64,000 bases of DNA from Patescibacteria group bacterium. GTDB taxonomy: Bacteria > Patescibacteriota > Minisyncoccia > Minisyncoccales > RBG-13-36-15. The stretch covers positions 9,559 through 73,558 of the forward strand of contig JAHCSE010000001.1 of assembly GCA_018609195.1 (NCBI GenBank), in the 5' to 3' direction. The position numbers and the translations under genes are program-made. This document shows, one piece after another, positions 344 to 35,915 of the stretch (its first letter is position 1; every line of letters starts with the position of its first letter). The notes under the pieces are model-generated. The model was not told the origin of the DNA. It was given only the letters and a program-made list of their open reading frames with translations, and ran no database searches.

Positions 344-1105
344 TCAACTTCTACTAACTGCTTTTACTAATATAACAAATTCTCTGGGATCTAATGAGGC
401 TCCCCCAACTAATAAGCCTTGAAAATTTGCCTCAAAAATGTAGGAGGCGGCGTTCTTGCCATTCACGCTTCCTCCGTAGAGAATTTTTATGGTTTTAGCT
501 AATTTTTTGTCATAGATTTTGGAAATAACTTTTTTAATAACATCGAGAGATTTTTTAGCTTCCCTTGGTGAACAAGCTTTTCCTGTTCCTATTGCCCAAA
601 CAGGTTCATAAGCGATTGCTAATTTTGAGTTTTGAATGTTGAATGCTGAAATTTTTGATAGAGCTTTTTTTAATTGATTTTTTAATATTGTTTGTGTTTT
701 GCCCTGTCCTCTCTCTTTTCGAGTTTCACCAATACATAAAATTGGGCTTAATTTTCTCTTGAGAGTCACTTTCAATTTTTTATTTATCATTTCATCAGTT
801 TCCTTTAAATATCTTCTCCGTTCAGAATGACCAATAATAACATATTTACAACCTGAATCTTTTAGCATTTTAGGAGAAATTTCTCCTGTAAAAGCTCCCT
901 TTTCTTCCCAGAATACATCTTGTGCGCCTAAATGGGGTTTGTAGTTTGTAGTTTGCAGTTGGGATAAATAAAGAAATGGTGGACAGATAACCACTTCTAC
1001 ATTTTTAACATTTTTTATCCCTTTCTTAAGTGAATTAAAAAGCTGCTTAGCTTCAGTCAAAGATTGAGGGTTCATTTTCCAATTTGCGACAATGAGTGGT
1101 TTCAT
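344..1105 (-). CDS. tpiA: Triosephosphate isomerase
   Basis: 253 aa; N-terminus MKPLIVANWKMN, IGHSERR and YEPVWAIGTG TIM signatures. Confidence 0.9.
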   Translation of the reverse strand: MKPLIVANWKMNPQSLTEAKQLFNSLKKGIKNVKNVEVVICPPFLYLSQLQTTNYKPHLGAQDVFWEEKGAFTGEISPKMLKDSGCKYVIIGHSERRRYLKETDEMINKKLKVTLKRKLSPILCIGETRKERGQGKTQTILKNQLKKALSKISAFNIQNSKLAIAYEPVWAIGTGKACSPREAKKSLDVIKKVISKIYDKKLAKTIKILYGGSVNGKNAASYIFEANFQGLLVGGASLDPREFVILVKAVSRS

Positions 1106-2208
1106 TGTTTCCTTAAATATTCAGCTGCTTTTTCCGGCTCAATAGTCGAAATTTCTATCCCTGTTCCCAGTTCAAAACCGGCCCAGACCCCAGTTTTAGG
1201 TAATACTTCAAAATGCCAGTGATAGTGATCATAATTTTTGCCATCGCAGGGAGCAGTATGTAAGAAAAAATTATAGGCAGGGTCATTTAAACCCTTAAAG
1301 ACTCTTTTGAGAGTCTGTTGAAGAGCTTCCGCCAAAGCCCATTTTTGCTCCTCATTTACTCGTTCAAAATAGGCGTGATGTTTGAGGGGGAAAATTCTGG
1401 TCTCAAAAGCCACTCTGGAAGCAAAAGGACACAATACCACAAAATCTTTATTTTTAAAGATAATCCTTCTGCCGTCTTTGAGATCCCAGTCAATCATTAC
1501 GCAATGGACGCACTTTTTATTTTCTTCAAAAAAGCGTTCAGATCCTTGAAGACTGGATTGAATATCAGGATCGGTTAAGGGCATGGCAATAATTTGAGAA
1601 TGGGGGTGGAAAACTGATGCTCCAGCTTCTGCTCCCTGATTATGGAAAATGGAAACGTAATTAACAAATTTCTCATTCATTAAATTCAAATATCTCTCTT
1701 GATAGGCATCTATTACCTCTTTAATTTGCTCTATTGAAAATTGAGCAATCTGTTTTACATGATCTCGGGTGATAACTACCTCATGAAAACCCATAGCATC
1801 CATTAACTGATAAGGACCTTCGGTTCTTTCATTTAAACTGGTATCTCTGGCAAAAGCTGGAAATTTATTAGGAATAACAATAGTTGTCCAGTTTTTAGGG
1901 ATGTCTAGGGGCCCGTCTTTAGCAGGAGGGCGGAGGGTGGGTTGGAGACCAAAGGGTACTTTTTTGCCTTCAGTGAAAATCAAAGTTGGTTTTTCTTGAG
2001 TTTCCAAATGACAAAAAGGGCAGGTCTTTTTTGGGGCGATAACAACTTTCCTTTTTTCTCTTTTAAAGGTCTCTGGCCGCTTAGCTCTGGCTGTAGCAAT
2101 AGTTATCCAGTCTTTAGAAACAAGGTCAAAACGAAGTTCGGAGGGACAAACTCCTGGGGGGCAAACCTTTAATTCTTTTTCGATCATTTTGATATGTTTT
2201 TTAGCCAT
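1102..2208 (-). CDS. Galactose-1-phosphate uridylyltransferase-like (GalT/HIT superfamily) nucleotidyltransferase
   Basis: 368 aa; CPFC zinc site near N-terminus, HPHSQ (HxHxQ) active-site motif, second half-domain HYHWHFE. Confidence 0.7.
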   Translation of the reverse strand: MAKKHIKMIEKELKVCPPGVCPSELRFDLVSKDWITIATARAKRPETFKREKRKVVIAPKKTCPFCHLETQEKPTLIFTEGKKVPFGLQPTLRPPAKDGPLDIPKNWTTIVIPNKFPAFARDTSLNERTEGPYQLMDAMGFHEVVITRDHVKQIAQFSIEQIKEVIDAYQERYLNLMNEKFVNYVSIFHNQGAEAGASVFHPHSQIIAMPLTDPDIQSSLQGSERFFEENKKCVHCVMIDWDLKDGRRIIFKNKDFVVLCPFASRVAFETRIFPLKHHAYFERVNEEQKWALAEALQQTLKRVFKGLNDPAYNFFLHTAPCDGKNYDHYHWHFEVLPKTGVWAGFELGTGIEISTIEPEKAAEYLRKQ

Positions 2209-2932
2209 ATTTTTTCGTGATCACATTCCATCTTATTTGGAAAACCTCAAAAAGCATCTTTATCATTCCTTTCAGTTTTACCTTGCTTTCAGGATCATTA
2301 ATCCACTTTACCGGGATCTCTTTTACTTTATAACCTAATGTCTTAGCTATTACTAAAATTTCAACATCAAAAGCCCAGCGATTAATTTTACATTTTGGTA
2401 AAATATCATCTACCGCCTTTTGTGTAAATCCTTTAAAACCACATTGAGTATCCCAAATCCCCCACAAGCCAGAAACTACCTGAACAATTAAATTAAAAAT
2501 ATCCCCCAATCTCCTTCTTATGAAAGATTGAGGAACAGCAATGACAGCTCCCTTGATATCTCTCGACCCAATAACAACTTCAAAACCCTTTTCAAGCTCT
2601 GGCCACATTTTCTCAACTTGATCAATAGAAGTAGCATTATCAGCATCAGTAAACAATCTGTACTCCCCTTTTGCCTCTAACATTCCTTGCCTTACCACAA
2701 AACCTTTCCCATTATTTTCTTTATTATCAATCAATCTCAGATTTTTTATTCGACTTTGTAAATTTTTTACAACTTCGGCAGTCTTATCTTTTGAGCCATC
2801 ATTAACCACAACTATCTCAGAATCATAATTTTGCTTTCTTAAATACTTATCAATCTCAGTCAAAGTTTTTGGCAAACGCCTTTCTTCATTATAAACAGGA
2901 ATGATAACGGATAAATAAGTTCTATTTGGCAT
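2201..2932 (-). CDS. Family 2 glycosyltransferase (dolichyl/polyprenyl-phosphate sugar transferase-like)
   Basis: 243 aa; LSVIIPVYNEE...VVNDGSKD...TDADN GT-A fold motifs. Confidence 0.8.
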   Translation of the reverse strand: MPNRTYLSVIIPVYNEERRLPKTLTEIDKYLRKQNYDSEIVVVNDGSKDKTAEVVKNLQSRIKNLRLIDNKENNGKGFVVRQGMLEAKGEYRLFTDADNATSIDQVEKMWPELEKGFEVVIGSRDIKGAVIAVPQSFIRRRLGDIFNLIVQVVSGLWGIWDTQCGFKGFTQKAVDDILPKCKINRWAFDVEILVIAKTLGYKVKEIPVKWINDPESKVKLKGMIKMLFEVFQIRWNVITKKYG

Positions 2933-2960
2933 TAGATTATTTTAGCACAAAAATTTTTAG

Positions 2961-2998
2961 AAACAAAAACGGGGCGTTCAGCTAGCTGACACCCCTTT
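2961..2998. terminator. GC hairpin terminator (bidirectional), paralogous to 3345..3385
   Basis: AAAAACGGGGCGTTCAGCTAGCTGACACCCCTTTT. Confidence 0.55.
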
Positions 2999-3018
2999 TA
3001 AGATAGGTATTTTGTGAA

Positions 3019-3246
3019 TTAGAAGGTGATGAGATAGATCTGATCCCCTCTCGGTGTTTTACAGGATTTCACTTCACGGTACTTATCGGCGAAGAATACT
3101 CGAATCCACTTTATTGCTTGGAGTGCATCATCATCAGGATTGCCTTTATTTGGCTCAGCGCTCATTGAAAGCGTTACATTGCCAGGTCTATCATGCTGGA
3201 CTACTTGAACTCGGAGCTGAACTGTCTTGTCGAACAAAACTGTCAT
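3019..3246 (-). CDS. Hypothetical 75-aa protein in a GC-rich island
   Basis: Strong SD (AAAGGAGGT, 7 nt before ATG); higher GC than surroundings; flanked by two similar GGGGCG-stem hairpins. Confidence 0.45.
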   Translation of the reverse strand: MTVLFDKTVQLRVQVVQHDRPGNVTLSMSAEPNKGNPDDDALQAIKWIRVFFADKYREVKSCKTPRGDQIYLITF

Positions 3247-3290
3247 TCCCAGAACCTCCTTTTCTCCTCTGCCAAATGATCAGGACTTAT

Positions 3291-3340
3291 GGAATTTTGT
3301 GCTGATTGTAATATAATCTATTGTTATAATTCTGTCAATA
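3291..3340. repeat. Diverged copy of the map 3'-end region (direct repeat partner of 3680..3735)
   Basis: ggaattttgtgct........tataatctatt...ataattctgtcaata vs ggaaatttgtgct........tataatctatt...ccaaatttgtcaata (about 75% identical). Confidence 0.6.
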
Positions 3341-3344
3341 AAAA

Positions 3345-3385
3345 AATGGGGCGCTCAGCCACTCGAGCGCCCCTTTCGGATGTGA
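3345..3385. terminator. GC hairpin terminator (bidirectional)
   Basis: AAAAAAATGGGGCGCTCAGCCACTCGAGCGCCCCTTT. Confidence 0.55.
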
Positions 3386-3421
3386 ACCCATTTTAGGCCT
3401 GGGTGAAGGATGAGAGATTTC

Positions 3422-3655
3422 TTATCTTCTTTTCCCGAACTCTAACTCTTTTGTTATAACAGCTATCGCTTCCTCCCTGTTTTTAGCAAATCTTATCGTC
3501 TGACCGGAGACCCAGGCAGTCCATGGGCGCTGGCGCCAAGAGTAATGCGTTATACCAGTAAAAAATTCCCTCGGGAAGTTTTGCATTTGTTCCTTAGTAG
3601 GGTCTTCAATGATTTTTATCGTCCTCCCAGCCACTATTATCTCTCCTGGCTGCAT
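3422..3655 (-). CDS. Hypothetical 77-aa protein (inserted between map and its displaced 3' end copy)
   Basis: SD-like GGAAAGGGAGAG upstream; sits between 50-nt direct repeats that both resemble the map 3' end. Confidence 0.45.
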   Translation of the reverse strand: MQPGEIIVAGRTIKIIEDPTKEQMQNFPREFFTGITHYSWRQRPWTAWVSGQTIRFAKNREEAIAVITKELEFGKRR

Positions 3656-3679
3656 TTCTCTCCCTTTCCTATCTATAAA

Positions 3680-3735
3680 ATGCAGGGCGTGGAAATTTGT
3701 GCTAACTTCCCTATAATCTATTATTCCAAATTTGT
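3680..3735. repeat. Direct repeat partner; includes the genuine map stop codon and last codons
   Basis: See 3291..3340. Confidence 0.6.
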
Positions 3736-4470
3736 CAATACTCGGCTGCCATTTTTTGTTACCGCAATTGTTTGTTCAAAATGGGCTGAAAGAGAACCAT
3801 CTTGAGTTTCATAGCCAAACCCATCTTTTGTTTTTTTAAGTTTCCAATCCCCTATTGTTACCATAGGTTCAATGCAAATTACCATACCTTCTTTTAGCTC
3901 AATTCCTTTATGTCTTTTCCCATAGTTTAAAATTTTTGGGTCCTCATGTAATTCTTTGCCAATTCCGTGGCCACAGAGTTCTCTTACTACATTGTATCCT
4001 TGAGATTCCACATATCTTTGAATGGTATTTGAGATATCCCCTATGGTATTTCCTGGCCTTACTTTTTTAATTCCTCTTTTTAAAGCCTTTTTTGTTACTC
4101 TTATTAATCGTAATGTTTCCGGATTAACTTTTCCTACTGGTAAGGTCACCGCCATATCATTGTGAAAACCCTTATATAAAATCCCCAAATCCAAAGTTAA
4201 AACATCTCCTTCTTTCAAAACTCGATTAGAAGGAACAGAATGGACAATCTCTTCGTTGATTGAACTACAGAGACAGGTTGGAAAACCTTCATATCCTTTG
4301 AAAGAACATTTCCCCCCATATTTTAAAATCAGGCTCTCTGCGAGCCTGTTCAGTTCTTTAGTCGTTATTCCCGGTCTTACTTTCCCTATCAATTCTTTCA
4401 TTATCTTGCCAAGAATTTTTCCACCTTCTGTCATGATTTGAATTTCTTCTGAGGATTTAATCGTTATCAT
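3721..4470 (-). CDS. map: Methionine aminopeptidase type I
   Basis: 249 aa; typical MetAP metal-binding residues (D..D..H..E..E context: GHGIGKELHEDP, ICIEPM). Confidence 0.9.
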   Translation of the reverse strand: MITIKSSEEIQIMTEGGKILGKIMKELIGKVRPGITTKELNRLAESLILKYGGKCSFKGYEGFPTCLCSSINEEIVHSVPSNRVLKEGDVLTLDLGILYKGFHNDMAVTLPVGKVNPETLRLIRVTKKALKRGIKKVRPGNTIGDISNTIQRYVESQGYNVVRELCGHGIGKELHEDPKILNYGKRHKGIELKEGMVICIEPMVTIGDWKLKKTKDGFGYETQDGSLSAHFEQTIAVTKNGSRVLTNLE

Positions 4471-5159
4471 TTTAAAGCCTTTAAAATATCTTGAAAAACT
4501 GCCTCCACCGATTGTTCGCCATTAACTTCTTTTATTTGTAATCCGTGTTTTTTGAAATAATCTATCAAAGGAAGTGTTCTTTCTTGATATTCTTTTAATC
4601 TAACTTTAATCACTTCTCTGGTATCATCCTTACGAATTATTAATCTTGAACCATCTAAGGGACATTTTCTCAATTTGGCGGTTTCTTGTGTATACAAAAT
4701 CGGATGGCGCATTAACTTACAGATTCTTCTTCTTGTGCCTCTCCAGATAGATTGTTCTGGGCTTAATGTGATAAGAATTATTTTTATATTTGAGGCCTTA
4801 TATAATTTTTTTAGAAAAGGGGTAACTTCTTTCCCTTCGTATAGAGTCCGAGGAGAGCCGGCTATCGACAGTCCCTTCCCCACCTTTGCTAGTTCTTTAA
4901 TCTTATTTTTTATCCAAAAAACAATTAAAGGAGGACTCATTAGTTTTCCCCTCTCTCGCATTTTTTTTTCTTCAATTAAAAAATATTTCTTTCCTTTAAC
5001 AATAATAAAATCGTCTTTTTTAATATTTTTTAAATTAGCGTCGATAATCCTACTTGTCTCCAAGTAATACAAATTCAATTTCTCAGCTAATAACTCAGCT
5101 TGGGTCCCTTTCCCAGATCCCGGCGGCCCTAATAATATAATCACTTGTTTATTACTCAT
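4467..5159 (-). CDS. adk: Adenylate kinase (long form with Cys4 LID)
   Basis: 230 aa; GPPGSGKGTQ P-loop; LID region with RRICKLMRHP...CPLDGSRL zinc-type motif; conserved position secY-adk-map. Confidence 0.85.
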   Translation of the reverse strand: MSNKQVIILLGPPGSGKGTQAELLAEKLNLYYLETSRIIDANLKNIKKDDFIIVKGKKYFLIEEKKMRERGKLMSPPLIVFWIKNKIKELAKVGKGLSIAGSPRTLYEGKEVTPFLKKLYKASNIKIILITLSPEQSIWRGTRRRICKLMRHPILYTQETAKLRKCPLDGSRLIIRKDDTREVIKVRLKEYQERTLPLIDYFKKHGLQIKEVNGEQSVEAVFQDILKALK

Positions 5160-5178: not shown

Positions 5179-6465
5179 TTAAAAAGTTTCGTATTCTCGC
5201 ATTTGAAGTTGGGCTCTGACTTGACGCATAGTCTCTAAAACCACTGAAACCACAATAAGCAAGGCTGTCCCCCCCACCAGAAACTGGAAAAGCACCACCC
5301 CAGTTATACCTTGAACAATAATGGGTAAAACGGCAATTGTCCCTAAAAATAAAGCCCCAATTAATAAGATTCGATTTAAAACATAATATAAAAAGTTGGC
5401 GGTTGAAGGTCCTGGCCTGATGCCTGGGATAAATCCTCCCATTTTTTGCAAATTAGAGGAAATGGCTTTGGGGTCAAAGGTGACAGCTGTATAAAAATAG
5501 GTAAAAAGGCCGACTAAAAGAAAATAGAGAATTCCGTAACTCCAAGGGTTTCTGGCAGGGTCCACAATACTTCCTATGGTTTGAGCTATATTTGAAATCA
5601 TACCTTCCCCACCCGCTAAAAAACTGGCAATCATTCCTGGGAAAAGTAAGATAGATAAGGCAAAAATGATTGGAATAACACCAGCTGGATTGATATTTAA
5701 GGGTAAATAGGTGGAAACACCACCGTACATTCGCATACCCCTGACTCTTTTTGCATAAGAAACCGGAATATTTCTTCTGGCCTCATTTACTAAAACCACT
5801 CCGGCAATAATAGCTAAGGCCCCAGCAAAAAAGAGCAAATAGGCGGGAATCCTTGAAGGATCATAAGTAATAATCAGTTGGCGGATATTATTTGGAAGAG
5901 CAGAAACAATCCCAGCAAAAATTAAAAGGGAAATACCATTGCCAATCCCTTTTTCTGAGATTAACTCCCCGAGCCACATTAAAAAAACAGCTCCAGCAGC
6001 GACAGTCAAAAGAGAAGTTAAAAGAGAGATTGGAGAAAGAGTCCCAATAATATTTTGACGCTGAAGTAAAATGAGAAGCCCGTACCCTTGAAGAGTAGCG
6101 AAAGGAACAGTTAAAAGGCGCCCATATTGATTAAATTTTTGGCGCCCCGTCTCCCCCTCCTCTTTATAAAGCTTCTCTAGCTGAGGAAAAATCATTGTGA
6201 GCAACTGCAAAATAATAACTGAAGTAATATAAGGCCCCAATCCCAGCATGATAATGGAAAGGTTATCAAGGGCACCGCCGGTAAAAATATTTAATAATCC
6301 CAAAAGTTGATTGGCCTCAAAAAATTCCCTCATTCTTGCGAGATCAATTCCTGGAATAGGAATATTAGCCATTATTCGAAAAATGACAAAAATTCCCAAG
6401 ATAAACAAGATTTTGTTGCGGAGATCACGGATCTTAAATATTTGGATGATTTTTTGATACCACAT
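5179..6465 (-). CDS. secY: Preprotein translocase subunit SecY
   Basis: 428 aa, 10-TM profile, conserved operon position after rplO. Confidence 0.9.
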   Translation of the reverse strand: MWYQKIIQIFKIRDLRNKILFILGIFVIFRIMANIPIPGIDLARMREFFEANQLLGLLNIFTGGALDNLSIIMLGLGPYITSVIILQLLTMIFPQLEKLYKEEGETGRQKFNQYGRLLTVPFATLQGYGLLILLQRQNIIGTLSPISLLTSLLTVAAGAVFLMWLGELISEKGIGNGISLLIFAGIVSALPNNIRQLIITYDPSRIPAYLLFFAGALAIIAGVVLVNEARRNIPVSYAKRVRGMRMYGGVSTYLPLNINPAGVIPIIFALSILLFPGMIASFLAGGEGMISNIAQTIGSIVDPARNPWSYGILYFLLVGLFTYFYTAVTFDPKAISSNLQKMGGFIPGIRPGPSTANFLYYVLNRILLIGALFLGTIAVLPIIVQGITGVVLFQFLVGGTALLIVVSVVLETMRQVRAQLQMREYETF

Positions 6466-6468
6466 GTT

Positions 6469-6900
6469 TTATTTTATTACGCCTCCTGCTTTCTCAATTT
6501 TCTCTTGAGCTTGCTTTGAAACCTGACATTCTTCAATTGATAACTTTTTTGTCAGTTTCCCTTTTCCTAGAATTTTAACCTGGGGCAATCTTCCTTTTAT
6601 TTTACGAAATATTCTTTTCTCATGCAAGACTTTAGGAGTAATTGTATCTCCCTCTTTAAATTTTTTTTCTAAAATTTCAACATTAATTACAGTTGGTTTT
6701 AATTGAAAACTCTTAAATCTATATCCTCTCAATTTTGGATACCTTTTTATCAATTCTCGAATAATGGGCTTTAATCTTCTGCCTGCTCTCGATTTTTGAC
6801 CTTTCATTCCCTTACCAGAATAAGTTCCGCGTTTACCCCCTCGGCCAACGCGCTTTTTTCTCTTTCTTTTATAATTTGGTTTTAGCTGATGAAGTTGCAT
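6469..6900 (-). CDS. rplO: 50S ribosomal protein L15
   Basis: 143 aa; KRVGRGGKRGTYSGKGMKGQKSR signature. Confidence 0.9.
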   Translation of the reverse strand: MQLHQLKPNYKRKRKKRVGRGGKRGTYSGKGMKGQKSRAGRRLKPIIRELIKRYPKLRGYRFKSFQLKPTVINVEILEKKFKEGDTITPKVLHEKRIFRKIKGRLPQVKILGKGKLTKKLSIEECQVSKQAQEKIEKAGGVIK

Positions 6901-6975: not shown

Positions 6976-7449
6976 TTATCTCGGTGCTTTTAACTGTTTT
7001 AACGCCTCGATGGTCGCTCTCGCATTATTCAACTTATTGCTTGTCCTTCCCAGAATCTTTGATGAAACATTTTTTATTCCAGCTAAAGTACAAATCACTC
7101 TTACTGTTCCTCCTGCTACCAGTCCCCTTCCTCTTCTTTGAGGTTTCAATAAAACTTTAGCTGGCCCAAATTTAGCATAAACTTCATGGGGAATAGTATC
7201 TTCAACAATGGGAATGGTAATTAAATTTTTCTTAGCTAATCTGGTAGCTTTTTCAATGGCTTGAGCAACATTAAGGCCTTTCGCCACTGCCACCCCAATT
7301 TTCCCTTCTTTATTACCAGTCACCACCACTGCCCGAAAGCTAAAACGCCGACCACCGGCTGTCACCCGAGTCACTCGAGCCAAATCTAAAAGCTTTGATT
7401 CAAATTCTTCCTTTTTTTCTTCTGCAATTATTTCTACCATATAGAACAA
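6976..7449 (-). CDS. rpsE: 30S ribosomal protein S5
   Basis: 157 aa; dsRBD plus S5 C-terminal domain (GRRFSFRAVVVTGN, KGLNVAQAIEKA). Confidence 0.9.
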   Translation of the reverse strand: MFYMVEIIAEEKKEEFESKLLDLARVTRVTAGGRRFSFRAVVVTGNKEGKIGVAVAKGLNVAQAIEKATRLAKKNLITIPIVEDTIPHEVYAKFGPAKVLLKPQRRGRGLVAGGTVRVICTLAGIKNVSSKILGRTSNKLNNARATIEALKQLKAPR

Positions 7450-17847: not shown

Positions 17848-17925
17848 CTATTTCCTCTTTCCCTCAATGATCTCCTGAGTAATATTCTGAGGTACTTCTC
17901 CGTAATGGTCGAATTCCATCGTAAA
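17848..17925 (-). pseudogene. Diverged in-frame duplicate of the last ~25 codons of fusA, downstream of element A3
   Basis: Encodes ...[25 protein letters not shown] vs the genuine fusA end [25 protein letters not shown]; nucleotide identity is low at synonymous sites. Confidence 0.7.
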
Positions 17926-18097
17926 GTCGCTCCGCTCCTCCAGTCTTCGGCTGGCGCTCCCCGCCAACATCTTCGAAGTTGTGGCGGGTCGCTTCGCTCC
18001 GCTCCCCAGACACCTCTCGGTTTCTGGCGGTCGTCGCTTCGCTCCTCCCTGTTTTCCTACACGGGAAAACACCCAGTTTTCCCGACCCCTTTCTGCT
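17926..18097 (+). repeat. GC-rich structured element family A, copy A3 (between the fusA stop and its duplicated 3' end)
   Basis: GTCGCTCCGCTCCTCCAG..long hairpin CCCGCCAACATCTTCGAAGTTGTGGCGGG..CTGTTTTCCTACACGGGAAAAC-ACCCA-GTTTTCCCGACCCCTTTCTG. Confidence 0.8.
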
Positions 18098-18120
18098 TCA
18101 CTATGGAGTTTTATCTAAAA

Positions 18121-20435: not shown

Positions 20436-20452
20436 AATCACCAAGCCAAATG

Positions 20453-20612
20453 GTCGCTCGCCCTCCTCCAGCGCAGAGCGCTGGCGGACGCCTTTGGCGT
20501 CCTTCGGGCTCACTCCCCAGACACCTCTCGGTTTCTGGCGCTCCTTCGCTTTCGCTCAGTCACTGTTTTCCTATACGGGGAAACACCCAGTTTCCCCGAC
20601 CCCTTTCTGCCA
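20453..20612 (+). repeat. GC-rich structured element family A, copy A4 (abuts the rpsG stop)
   Basis: GTCGCTCGCCCTCCTCCAG..GGACGCC-TTT-GGCGTCC (compensatory vs A1)..CTGTTTTCCTATACGGGGAAAC-ACCCA-GTTTCCCCGACCCCTTTCTG. Confidence 0.8.
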
Positions 20613-20619
20613 CTTTGCG

Positions 20620-26822: not shown

Positions 26823-27479
26823 TTATTCAAGCCTATAATCCATAATATCCAAGAACCAATAACCTTCCATTTTAACTGGCCTGCTTTTCAGTATCCTTAT
26901 TTTCTTCTTAAATAGCGGGCCATCTACTACAAGGGTATGGTATTCGCCGTTCTCACCGCAAGGGTCAATATGTTTATATGCTCTCAAGTCTTTAAGAAAT
27001 TCCATATCCAGTCTTCTTCCAATCCACTCTTCACCAAGAAGACTTGCTTGGGTGCTTACTATTATTGCCTCAAATCCCGAATCTATGAATTCTAAAAGAA
27101 TTTCTTCTGGATTGCGACCCCAGAGAGGTTCAACCAACCGAAGACCGAGTTCTCCGCAAATCTTCTCTGCCCACTCTAAACAGTGCTGGAGGTGAATATC
27201 ACCAAAGACCATTCCCGATACTCCTCCTGGAAGCAATCTCCGCACGGCTTCCTTAAATTCTTGTTCGTATCCATCGGGCGTAGTCTCTACTTGCAAAATG
27301 GGAATACCCATTACTTGGGCTTGTGTTTGGATAAGCCCGGCTTCTATGCCGTGGAATCGGACACGCTTGAATTCTCTGGAAATAGTGTTGAAGAGATACG
27401 AAATATCATATCCTTCACGCTTTGCCTTATAGACGGCAAGGCAACTATCTTTGCCGCCGCTCCAAGAGGAAATATACAT
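26823..27479 (-). CDS. PP-loop ATPase of the Dph6 / MJ0570 (diphthine-ammonia ligase-like, DUF71) family
   Basis: 218 aa; SWSGGKDS PP-loop, EYHT. Confidence 0.65.
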   Translation of the reverse strand: MYISSWSGGKDSCLAVYKAKREGYDISYLFNTISREFKRVRFHGIEAGLIQTQAQVMGIPILQVETTPDGYEQEFKEAVRRLLPGGVSGMVFGDIHLQHCLEWAEKICGELGLRLVEPLWGRNPEEILLEFIDSGFEAIIVSTQASLLGEEWIGRRLDMEFLKDLRAYKHIDPCGENGEYHTLVVDGPLFKKKIRILKSRPVKMEGYWFLDIMDYRLE

Positions 27480-35679: not shown

Positions 35680-35830
35680 AAAAATGTGTCCTCCTCCGTT
35701 AAAACTTTGGAGGACATGGATGGCATTCTGACTTTCACAGTTACGGCATAGTCCCGGATTTCCTGCCCGCATCGCTATACGAAGTATTGCAGGCGGGTCA
35801 CCGGAGTTCCCCATCCGTTTTCAAAGTCCG
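35680..35830 (-). ncRNA. Candidate cobalamin riboswitch in the 5' leader of the B12-uptake/nrdJ gene string
   Basis: Minus-strand GGGGAACTCCGGTGACCCGCC ... GGAAATCCGGGACTATGCCGTAACTGTGA resembles GGGAAnnnGGTGa / AAnTCC / CCGCnACnGTnA cores; GC-rich and structured. Confidence 0.4.
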
Positions 35831-35915
35831 TTAATAAATAATATCAGCTTGCACGAAGTAGTGTCAAGAGAAAATCTGGGGATAACTGATTTAATTTGGA
35901 GAGATTTCTTAAAAT

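Follow-up and report, generated by a model that had tools for sequence, protein, structure and literature searches.

Two orphan small genes in stacked predicted transcription units behind map in a reduced Paceibacteria genome

The interval behind map, the gene for methionine aminopeptidase, was analysed in a 64,000-nucleotide (nt) stretch of contig JAHCSE010000001.1 from a Patescibacteria group bacterium; this whole stretch is called the window. Between map and a family-2 glycosyltransferase gene (GT) lie two small open reading frames (ORFs), ORF A and ORF B, in two stacked units of 400 nt each. Each unit would be self-contained, with a promoter, a leader of 45–55 nt carrying a Shine-Dalgarno (SD) sequence, one small ORF and an intrinsic terminator. 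Public contigs of up to 750 kb carry the identical sequence. The host is placed among the Paceibacteria of the candidate phyla radiation (CPR), the best matches of its map in a species-level genome collection being metagenome-assembled genomes of Paceibacteria or Parcubacteria with 58–80% amino-acid (aa) identity. Coordinates without a label refer to the window; the loci of relatives are cited by the labels L001–L087 and the homologous proteins as P0002, P0003 and P0005. The minus strand holds every gene in this part of the window. The features of map and the two units, in the direction in which they would be read, are:

3721–4470, minus strand, map, methionine aminopeptidase, 249 aa (from the ORF list; Pfam Peptidase_M24 on the identical public gene)
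3690–3740, minus strand, repeat copy A, the map 3' end and predicted promoter, with -35 TTGACA at 3733–3738, a 17-nt spacer and -10 TATAGG at 3710–3715
3660–3666, minus strand, SD-like AAGGGAG, 4 nt before the ORF A start (from the sequence)
3422–3655, minus strand, ORF A, 77 aa (from the ORF list)
3340–3373, minus strand, predicted terminator A, hairpin GGGGCGCUC/GAGCGCCCC at 3348–3373 followed by a T7 run at 3340–3346
3290–3340, minus strand, repeat copy B, a pseudo-copy of the map end and predicted promoter, with -35 TTGACA at 3333–3338, a 17-nt spacer and -10 TATATT at 3310–3315
3254–3261, minus strand, strong SD AAGGAGGT, 7 nt before the ORF B ATG (from the sequence)
3019–3246, minus strand, ORF B, 75 aa (from the ORF list)
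2961–2995, minus strand, predicted terminator B, hairpin GGGGUGUCAGC...GCUGAACGCCCC at 2971–2995 followed by a T-run (-15.7 kcal/mol)

The units begin with the two copies of a 51-nt direct repeat, which are 76% identical and spaced 400 nt apart. Comparison with shuffled sequences gave the repeat alignment a z-score of 13.8, with about 85 nt at the 5' end common to both units. A 27-nt motif taken from the repeat matches only these two sites in the 64 kb, where 0.04 matches would be expected by chance. Copy A comprises the genuine 3' end of map (V-L-T-N-L-E-stop, with the stop at 3721–3723) and the following 31 nt, and copy B reads L-T-E-L-stop, a displaced and decayed map pseudo-end. Identity between the copies is concentrated in the -35, -10 and +1 regions, and AGCACAAAWTTCCA is located at about the transcript start in both. 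By its consensus boxes the repeat is predicted to be a sigma-70-type promoter, clear for copy B and doubtful for copy A. In copy A the last map codons V-L-T (GTA TTG ACA) form the -35 box, TTGACA being the Leu-Thr codons, and the -10 box is positioned just past the map stop codon; the predicted transcript would start with AGCACAAATTTCCA as its first ~14 nt. The V/I-L-T C terminus of map is kept in relatives. The copy B promoter agrees with the consensus at 11 of 12 positions and is one of only three matches of at least 11/12 in the 60 kb scanned.

The 3' ends of the units are also alike. The end of unit B with its terminator aligns with that of unit A (z 9.3), and both hairpins are of the GGGGCG...CGCCCC type. 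Terminator A (-21.6 kcal/mol, z -3.7) has the most G-C pairs (8) of the terminator-like sites in the 60 kb scanned. Its stem is kept in L002 by paired substitutions, and the arm CTGAACGCCCC of terminator B is also found in the terminator A of L002. The T7 run of terminator A leads without a gap into the TATTGACA belonging to repeat copy B. The 175 nt between the two ORFs hold both this terminator and the 11/12 promoter. Because a strong predicted terminator and a second full promoter part the genes, ORF A and ORF B are best read as separate transcription units and not as an operon. As no terminator is present between map and ORF A, transcripts from map may also extend through ORF A.

A preliminary description of this locus, made from the letters alone, had placed both ORFs and the paired hairpins correctly. 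It had also noted two repeats of about 50 nt resembling the map end; these stand as such, with the second copy at 3690–3740 and not at 3680–3735. The near-perfect SD that it had pointed out before the 75-aa ORF is present, and a strong SD is indeed atypical of the window, where, among the 87 ORFs of 70 aa or longer, 71 lack any SD-like 4-mer in the upstream 20 nt. Besides ORF B, AAGGAGG precedes only two window ORFs (6976–7449 and 26823–27479). At the position of the SD-like site of ORF A, L001 reads GGAGGAGGAGG. The GC content of ORF A (0.444) and ORF B (0.439) is raised relative to the window mean of 0.377, as had been stated. However, the rise is modest and no outlier (about the 94th percentile of 400-nt windows), and the earlier wording of a GC content clearly above the host is too strong.

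Substitution patterns indicate that ORF A and ORF B are real and fast-evolving protein-coding genes, because the ratio of nonsynonymous to synonymous substitution rates (dN/dS) is 0.3–0.4, all indels are in frame and both frames stay open in every relative carrying them. ORF A encodes a small, basic orphan protein with an isoelectric point of about 10. Only two further versions of it are known, P0002 in the near-identical strain L001 (79% identity) and the copy in L002, the third contig carrying ORF A (66%). The ORF A dN/dS is 0.29–0.40 and the indels are of 3 nt and 9 nt; for comparison, the values are 0.08 for map and 0.18 for GT. ORF B has a homolog of 84% identity in L002 (P0003) and one of 49% in L086/L087 (P0005, E 5.5e-12). 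Comparison of ORF B with L086 gave a dN/dS of 0.41 at a synonymous rate (dS) of 0.89, with in-frame indels of four codons and one codon. Between the window and L002, ORF B shows a dS of 0.098 and a dN/dS of 0.76; a recombination tract reaching into GT, described below, accounts for the low dS. An exhaustive HMMER search with ORF B returned one true distant homolog (P0005) and four spurious repetitive proteins. ORF B encodes a small, basic protein whose family is new and very small. It is absent from the gene lists of those public records of the same sequence that were looked up (L003–L005), whereas gene calls exist for the homologs on L002 and L086; the missing entry is likely an annotation gap.

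Searches beyond the close relatives returned little. In 5.8 billion proteins, ORF A retrieved itself and one match, an ORF A profile nothing further, and ORF B one match. Both ORFs and their homologs gave nothing significant against Pfam, PHROGs, PADLOC and NCBIfam, with PHROGs matches only at E ≥ 0.04. No match was found for either ORF in the IMG/VR viral contigs, for ORF A in phage genomes by tblastn, or in a scan of proteins on metagenome contigs. A DNA-pattern scan of metagenomes for the promoter and leader gave 77 matches, all by chance, and Rfam over the region gave only noise at E ≤ 10. Neither the window nor 38 related loci contain paralogs of ORF A or ORF B. That these genes are a displaced infA or ribosomal-protein gene was rejected because family matches are lacking, infA is present elsewhere in the genome and the distribution is far too narrow. 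Antisense ORFs were likewise rejected as true genes, as the one opposite ORF A is not conserved and all expression signals are on the minus strand.

The AlphaFold2 (AF2) model of ORF A has a predicted local distance difference test score (pLDDT) of 70 and a predicted template modelling score of 0.61, with the order strand-strand-helix-strand-strand-strand-helix. Its C-terminal half (residues ~33–76) consists of three strands (33–37, 45–49 and 52–57) followed by a helix (60–76). The ORF B model is poor (pLDDT 61) and has the order strand-strand-helix-strand-strand, which differs from that of ORF A. The ORF A and ORF B interiors are dissimilar at the nucleotide level (z -0.2), BLASTP did not align the two proteins and the other frames gave no match either; on this ground a diverged ORF B copy was rejected as the identity of ORF A. 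Foldseek searches of BFVD with the ORF A model gave several weak matches, to HNH endonucleases, to N-terminal regions of phage integrases and to an AP2-domain protein (root-mean-square deviation 0.8–1.5 Å over 36–40 residues, E 0.03–0.7). The three strands followed by a helix in the ORF A model may resemble AP2 and integrase Arm-type domains, in which a three-stranded sheet packs on a helix. However, ORF A has no sequence match to such domains in Pfam or the PDB. Foldseek against the PDB gave only E > 0.4, with no AP2 or Arm structure among the matches, a profile search (hmmsearch) of PDB sequences gave only noise, and hhalign against the AP2 domain of AtERF1 (1GCC) gave a probability of 0.9%. 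The ORF B search of the PDB with Foldseek also gave E > 0.4 and no credible match. As a lead only, ORF A may bind nucleic acid through its three-strand-plus-helix half, perhaps as a small DNA-binding regulator. Both proteins are predicted from their sequences to be soluble and mildly basic, and our best guess is that they are probably dispensable, related to niche or conflict, and independent of each other.

The order in which the units were acquired is indicated by L086 and L087, which have a single map end, a B-type leader directly after it, an ORF B homolog, a terminator and GT, and lack ORF A. The L086 map end (T-L-T-N-L-E-stop) carries the only promoter copy of that locus, TTGACT-17-TATATT. 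The leader behind it is homologous to the ORF B leader of the window, and the terminator after the ORF B homolog (GGGCG...CGCCC) is followed by GT. Because L086 has ORF B and one promoter copy without ORF A, the map-ORF B-GT arrangement is the older one, and only the 400-nt ORF A unit was inserted, predicted to span promoter copy A through terminator A. The preliminary description had proposed a small acquired module. This holds in that an insertion is flanked by the duplicated map end in a slot of exchanged genes; the part to be dropped is that both genes arrived, as the insertion comprises the ORF A unit alone. In L086 a 44-aa ORF (955–1089) directly upstream of the ORF B homolog uses a strong SD and leader of the ORF B type and corresponds, as a truncated paralog, to the N-terminal half of ORF B (BLASTP E 1e-5), which indicates a local tandem duplication of this half in the L086 lineage.

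The genes on either side of the two units and the border of the slot before GT are:

6469–6900, minus strand, rplO
5179–6465, minus strand, secY
4467–5159, minus strand, adk
2939–2947, minus strand, extended -10 (TGCTAAAAT) of the GT gene, from the sequence, ending 6 nt before the GT ATG (2932)
2201–2932, minus strand, GT, family-2 glycosyltransferase
1102–2208, minus strand, GalT-like gene
344–1105, minus strand, tpiA

The extended -10 of GT forms the right-hand border of the slot. Given its position so near the ATG, the GT mRNA is probably leaderless, and the same arrangement of TGnTAnAAT followed by ATG is found upstream of the GT orthologs in several relatives. In about 30 related Paceibacteria, map is directly followed by GT-GalT-TIM or by TIM and not by infA, which in this genome is located about 10 kb downstream according to the public gene table. 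In about 20 relatives the gap between map and the GT or TIM gene behind it measures just 3–82 nt. Because the relatives share these arrangements, the break between map and infA is ancestral to the clade, and the earlier view that the insertion itself interrupted a conserved map-infA-rpmJ order is not tenable.

A survey of about 37 Paceibacteria loci showed that the slot after map is empty in 21 of them, with the next conserved gene 3–242 nt after map, and occupied in 16 by 350–3500 nt of differing, unrelated cargo. The cargo includes:

L007, two AbiEii genes (nucleotidyltransferases) and a PIN toxin preceded by a small ORF
L041, AbiEii and DUF6922
L028, L018 and L021, PaaX/Cas2-like genes
L029, an OLD-like ATPase-TOPRIM protein, a methylase and Vsr
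L020, a Clp_N protein
L042, a small multidrug exporter

The cargo of L007, L041, L028, L018, L021 and L029 is recognisable as toxin-antitoxin or defence genes, that of L020 and L042 is of other kinds, and several orphans without a family match make up further cargo. A TTGACN-17-TAnnnT promoter across the map stop is found in 9–10 of the 16 cargo loci and is absent from all 21 empty loci (Fisher p ~1e-4 to 2e-5, from loci that are not phylogenetically independent). A promoter built into the map end in this way would serve whatever lands in the slot. Gene content across these loci shows the interval after map to be a variable accessory-gene hotspot of the clade. As in known accessory and defence hotspots, conserved flanks (adk-map and GT-GalT-TIM) enclose varying cargo and breakpoints lie inside the flanking genes. 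It differs from them in that the islet measures only 0.8 kb and is placed at the end of a ribosomal-protein/secY/adk/map string in a genome of about 750 kb. A further difference is that the left border doubles as a predicted promoter in the last map codons, and that the units appear to stack by duplicating this promoter. The islet is otherwise an ordinary accessory islet at a hotspot, a known kind, holding two orphan families.

A comparable architecture is found in L036 (6733–7772), where the order behind the map-end promoter is a 180-aa orphan gene, a terminator (7362–7387), a second promoter, an SD and a 110-aa ORF. The T-run (T7) of the terminator runs into the second promoter, TTGACA-17-AAGAAT, which is located within a 49–51-nt copy of L036's own map end (7392–7420, ~73% identity, z 4.7). 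Both the map-end sequence and the cargo of L036 differ from those of the window. On these features L036 is an independent second case of stacked promoter duplication, with junctions of T7/TATTGACA in the window and T7/TTGACA in L036.

Comparisons among the relatives showed that the islet is mosaic. Almost no differences separate the window from L001 along map or from 3510 on; across 3820–3510 they differ by 7–25% per 60-nt bin and by ~17% overall. This divergent tract includes the map end and promoter A and reaches two-thirds of the way through ORF A, and its variants are shared mosaically with L002. From ORF B to the start of GT, L002 in turn matches the window at 87–98% identity per bin. A comparison of 2402–2932 with L002 and L086 places a breakpoint inside GT near 2550–2620, before which L002 resembles the window (81–98% per bin) and after which it resembles L086; in the first bin past the breakpoint, L002 is 81% identical to L086 vs. 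58% to the window. These patterns indicate that the islet and its flanks have been exchanged by homologous recombination among related lineages.

We consider it somewhat better than even (a probability of about 0.55) that the locus as a whole consists of two stacked, self-contained 400-nt units with the order of acquisition given above and an origin by recombination between slot alleles. The ancestral state would be map-ORF B-GT, as it still is in L086. The ORF A unit would have been added later by recombination with another slot allele, one end being anchored by homology in map and the other joined illegitimately where the terminator T-run of the donor met the TATTGACA of the recipient map end. 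Such an event, either homology-facilitated illegitimate recombination or an unequal crossover, would leave the map end and its promoter duplicated. The product would read recipient map, then the map end, promoter, cargo A and terminator, and then the recipient map end from TATTGACA onward with ORF B. Related lineages would later have exchanged the islet by homologous recombination. In the resulting arrangement, ORF A would be transcribed probably by read-through from map together with the weakened promoter copy A, stopping at terminator A, and ORF B would be transcribed alone from the near-consensus copy B, stopping at terminator B. Recombination between slot alleles explains the related promoters and terminators of the two units through their shared slot borders, and it also accounts for the unrelated cargo, the intact left map copy, the T-run junction and the recurrence in L036.

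Homology-facilitated illegitimate recombination, in which a one-sided homology anchor is combined with a microhomology join, occurs in natural transformation of Acinetobacter and Streptococcus pneumoniae. The likeness to the present locus lies in foreign DNA beside a conserved gene, a duplicated recipient segment and an AT-rich microhomology junction. The difference is that the process would here be read back from its end product, and that an unequal crossover of sister alleles gives the same product.

Several observations weigh against this reconstruction. A donor allele with the order map-ORF A-GT was not found in the protein, genome, metagenome or viral searches, and ORF A is known from three closely related contigs only. 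The junction microhomology between the T-run and TATTGACA is short and AT-rich and thus weak evidence. The exact length of 400 nt of both units and their related terminators also fit a tandem duplication of a whole unit. The -10 box of copy A, TATAGG (TATAAG in L001), is without the near-invariant final T and TATAGG is rejected by the promoter scanner, such that copy A may be no promoter at all. The association of the map-stop promoter with cargo is weakened by the shared ancestry of the loci behind it. What is said above on protein function draws on weak fold hints and location and is only a lead.

The alternative that survives best, although unlikely, is that the whole 400-nt ORF B unit was duplicated in tandem and that the coding part of the upstream copy was then replaced, or diverged beyond recognition, into ORF A. 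Both units being exactly 400 nt and sharing the promoter and leader start as well as the 3' end with the terminator would follow directly from such a duplication, the T-run leading directly into TATTGACA is the expected head-to-tail junction, and L086 offers a local tandem duplicate of the N-terminal half of ORF B. However, the interiors have no similarity (z -0.2; no protein match in any frame) while the flanks are 76% identical. Because the flanks have retained this identity, drift from a common sequence cannot explain the interiors. The predicted secondary-structure orders differ as well, and a replacement of the coding part would still require a foreign donor.

A little less probable again is an origin of the ORF A unit as a remnant, or a trans-mobilised form, of a site-specific integrative element, with the map 3' end as its att site and the repeats as attL and attR; a GC-rich structured element at the 3' end of fusA would be a product of the same process. 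Such elements classically leave direct repeats of the target 3' end and restore the reading frame of the gene, L086 shows the corresponding "empty" arrangement with a single map end, and a 78-nt duplicate behind fusA keeps 23 of 25 aa despite 31% nucleotide differences. The weak Foldseek matches of ORF A to phage integrase N termini, HNH endonucleases and AP2-domain proteins are also in line with it. Against this, a search of the gene table for a recombinase within 10 kb on each side found housekeeping genes only and no recombinase, and only 349 nt separate the repeats. The repeats are 24% diverged and conserved at -35, -10 and +1, which suggests selection on a promoter and not a crossover core. 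The duplicate in L036 copies its own, different map end, and hence no conserved att core exists, and ORF A has no sequence similarity to AP2 or Arm-type domains. Integrative elements at gene 3' ends, such as the islands in tRNA, tmRNA and protein genes and the integrase-less cis-mobilisable elements, share with the present locus the 3'-end repeats, the intact gene and the displaced pseudo-end. They differ in the four respects just given: the integrase, the 349-nt length, the conserved promoter boxes and the other sequence in L036. The units are also unlike integron gene cassettes, which end in an attC site: here one end carries a predicted sigma-70-type promoter and the other a plain GC hairpin with T-run, and no integrase is present within 10 kb.

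The proposal of the preliminary description that the two genes form an addiction or defence-type pair, here taken as a toxin-antitoxin, addiction or anti-phage pair acquired as one module, is improbable. It draws on the slot itself, which in relatives carries PIN, AbiEii, OLD-like ATPase-nuclease, Vsr and methylase genes, and on the two genes being small, fast-evolving and patchily distributed and led by SD sequences that are unusual for this genome. However, the strong terminator and own promoter between the genes leave no operon, and L086 and L087 carry the ORF B homolog without ORF A, against the co-occurrence expected of such a pair. Neither PADLOC, Pfam, NCBIfam nor PHROGs gave a match, and structure prediction of both proteins (AF2 pLDDT 70 and 61) led to no significant fold match. 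The slot cargo is not specifically defensive either, as it includes many orphans, one Clp_N protein and one small multidrug exporter. Type II toxin-antitoxin systems resemble the locus in having two adjacent small genes, and true toxin-antitoxin genes occupy the slot in relatives; the locus differs in its separate units, in the lack of strict co-occurrence and in the lack of homology to toxin or antitoxin families. That the ORFs are incidental and the units make non-coding RNAs from the two promoters is very improbable: ORF B is missing from the public gene lists consulted and its synonymous sites are conserved too between the window and L002 (dS 0.098, dN/dS 0.76), but this low dS is explained by the recombination tract into GT, the ORFs are open in all relatives with in-frame indels and a dN/dS of 0.3–0.4 at dS 0.3–0.9, the SD sites are correctly spaced, and Rfam at E ≤ 10 gives only noise.

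Elsewhere in the window, two GC-rich (0.50–0.55) structured elements of about 180–195 nt directly follow the stop codons of fusA and rpsG:

17848–18120, minus strand, fusA structured element including a duplicate of the fusA 3' end
20440–20617, minus strand, rpsG structured element

The two elements have a common 5' consensus, GCAGAAAGGGGTCGGGRAAACTGGGTGTTT, and are alignable over most of their length. A GC-rich structured element folds with a minimum free energy of -68 kcal/mol (z -2.6), and Rfam gave no match for either of them even at E ≤ 1. The fusA element is accompanied by the 78-nt duplicate of the fusA 3' end at 17848–17925, with 54 of 78 nt and 23 of 25 aa identical. The preliminary description had drawn a parallel between the insertion behind map and these structured elements, and a parallel does exist in that the GC-rich element after fusA is followed by this 3'-end duplicate. 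The fusA and rpsG elements look like a separate and more unusual finding. On the same strand, an AdoCbl-II (cobalamin) riboswitch is located at 35713–35827 (39.1 bits vs. a gathering score of 36.5), closely preceded at 35838–35867 by a promoter match of 11/12 positions that has an extended -10.

It is conceivable, if rather far-fetched, that the map-end duplicates of the window and L036 and the fusA 3'-end duplicate are footprints of a single undescribed and dedicated insertion process in reduced CPR genomes. If true, this process would target and regenerate the extreme 3' ends of highly expressed genes, and ORF A, with its possible Arm/AP2-like fold, might take part in it. At map, promoter-gene-terminator cassettes would then be stacked like an integrase-less cassette array.

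Two new orphan families of small proteins are defined here, and nothing at this locus points to a new biochemical system or function. The predicted promoter hidden in the last codons of the core gene map would be a ready-made expression port for the slot, and the stacking of units by duplication of this promoter is seen twice independently, here and in L036. The islet is a small and clean example of a very reduced, symbiont-type genome that is still gaining genes.

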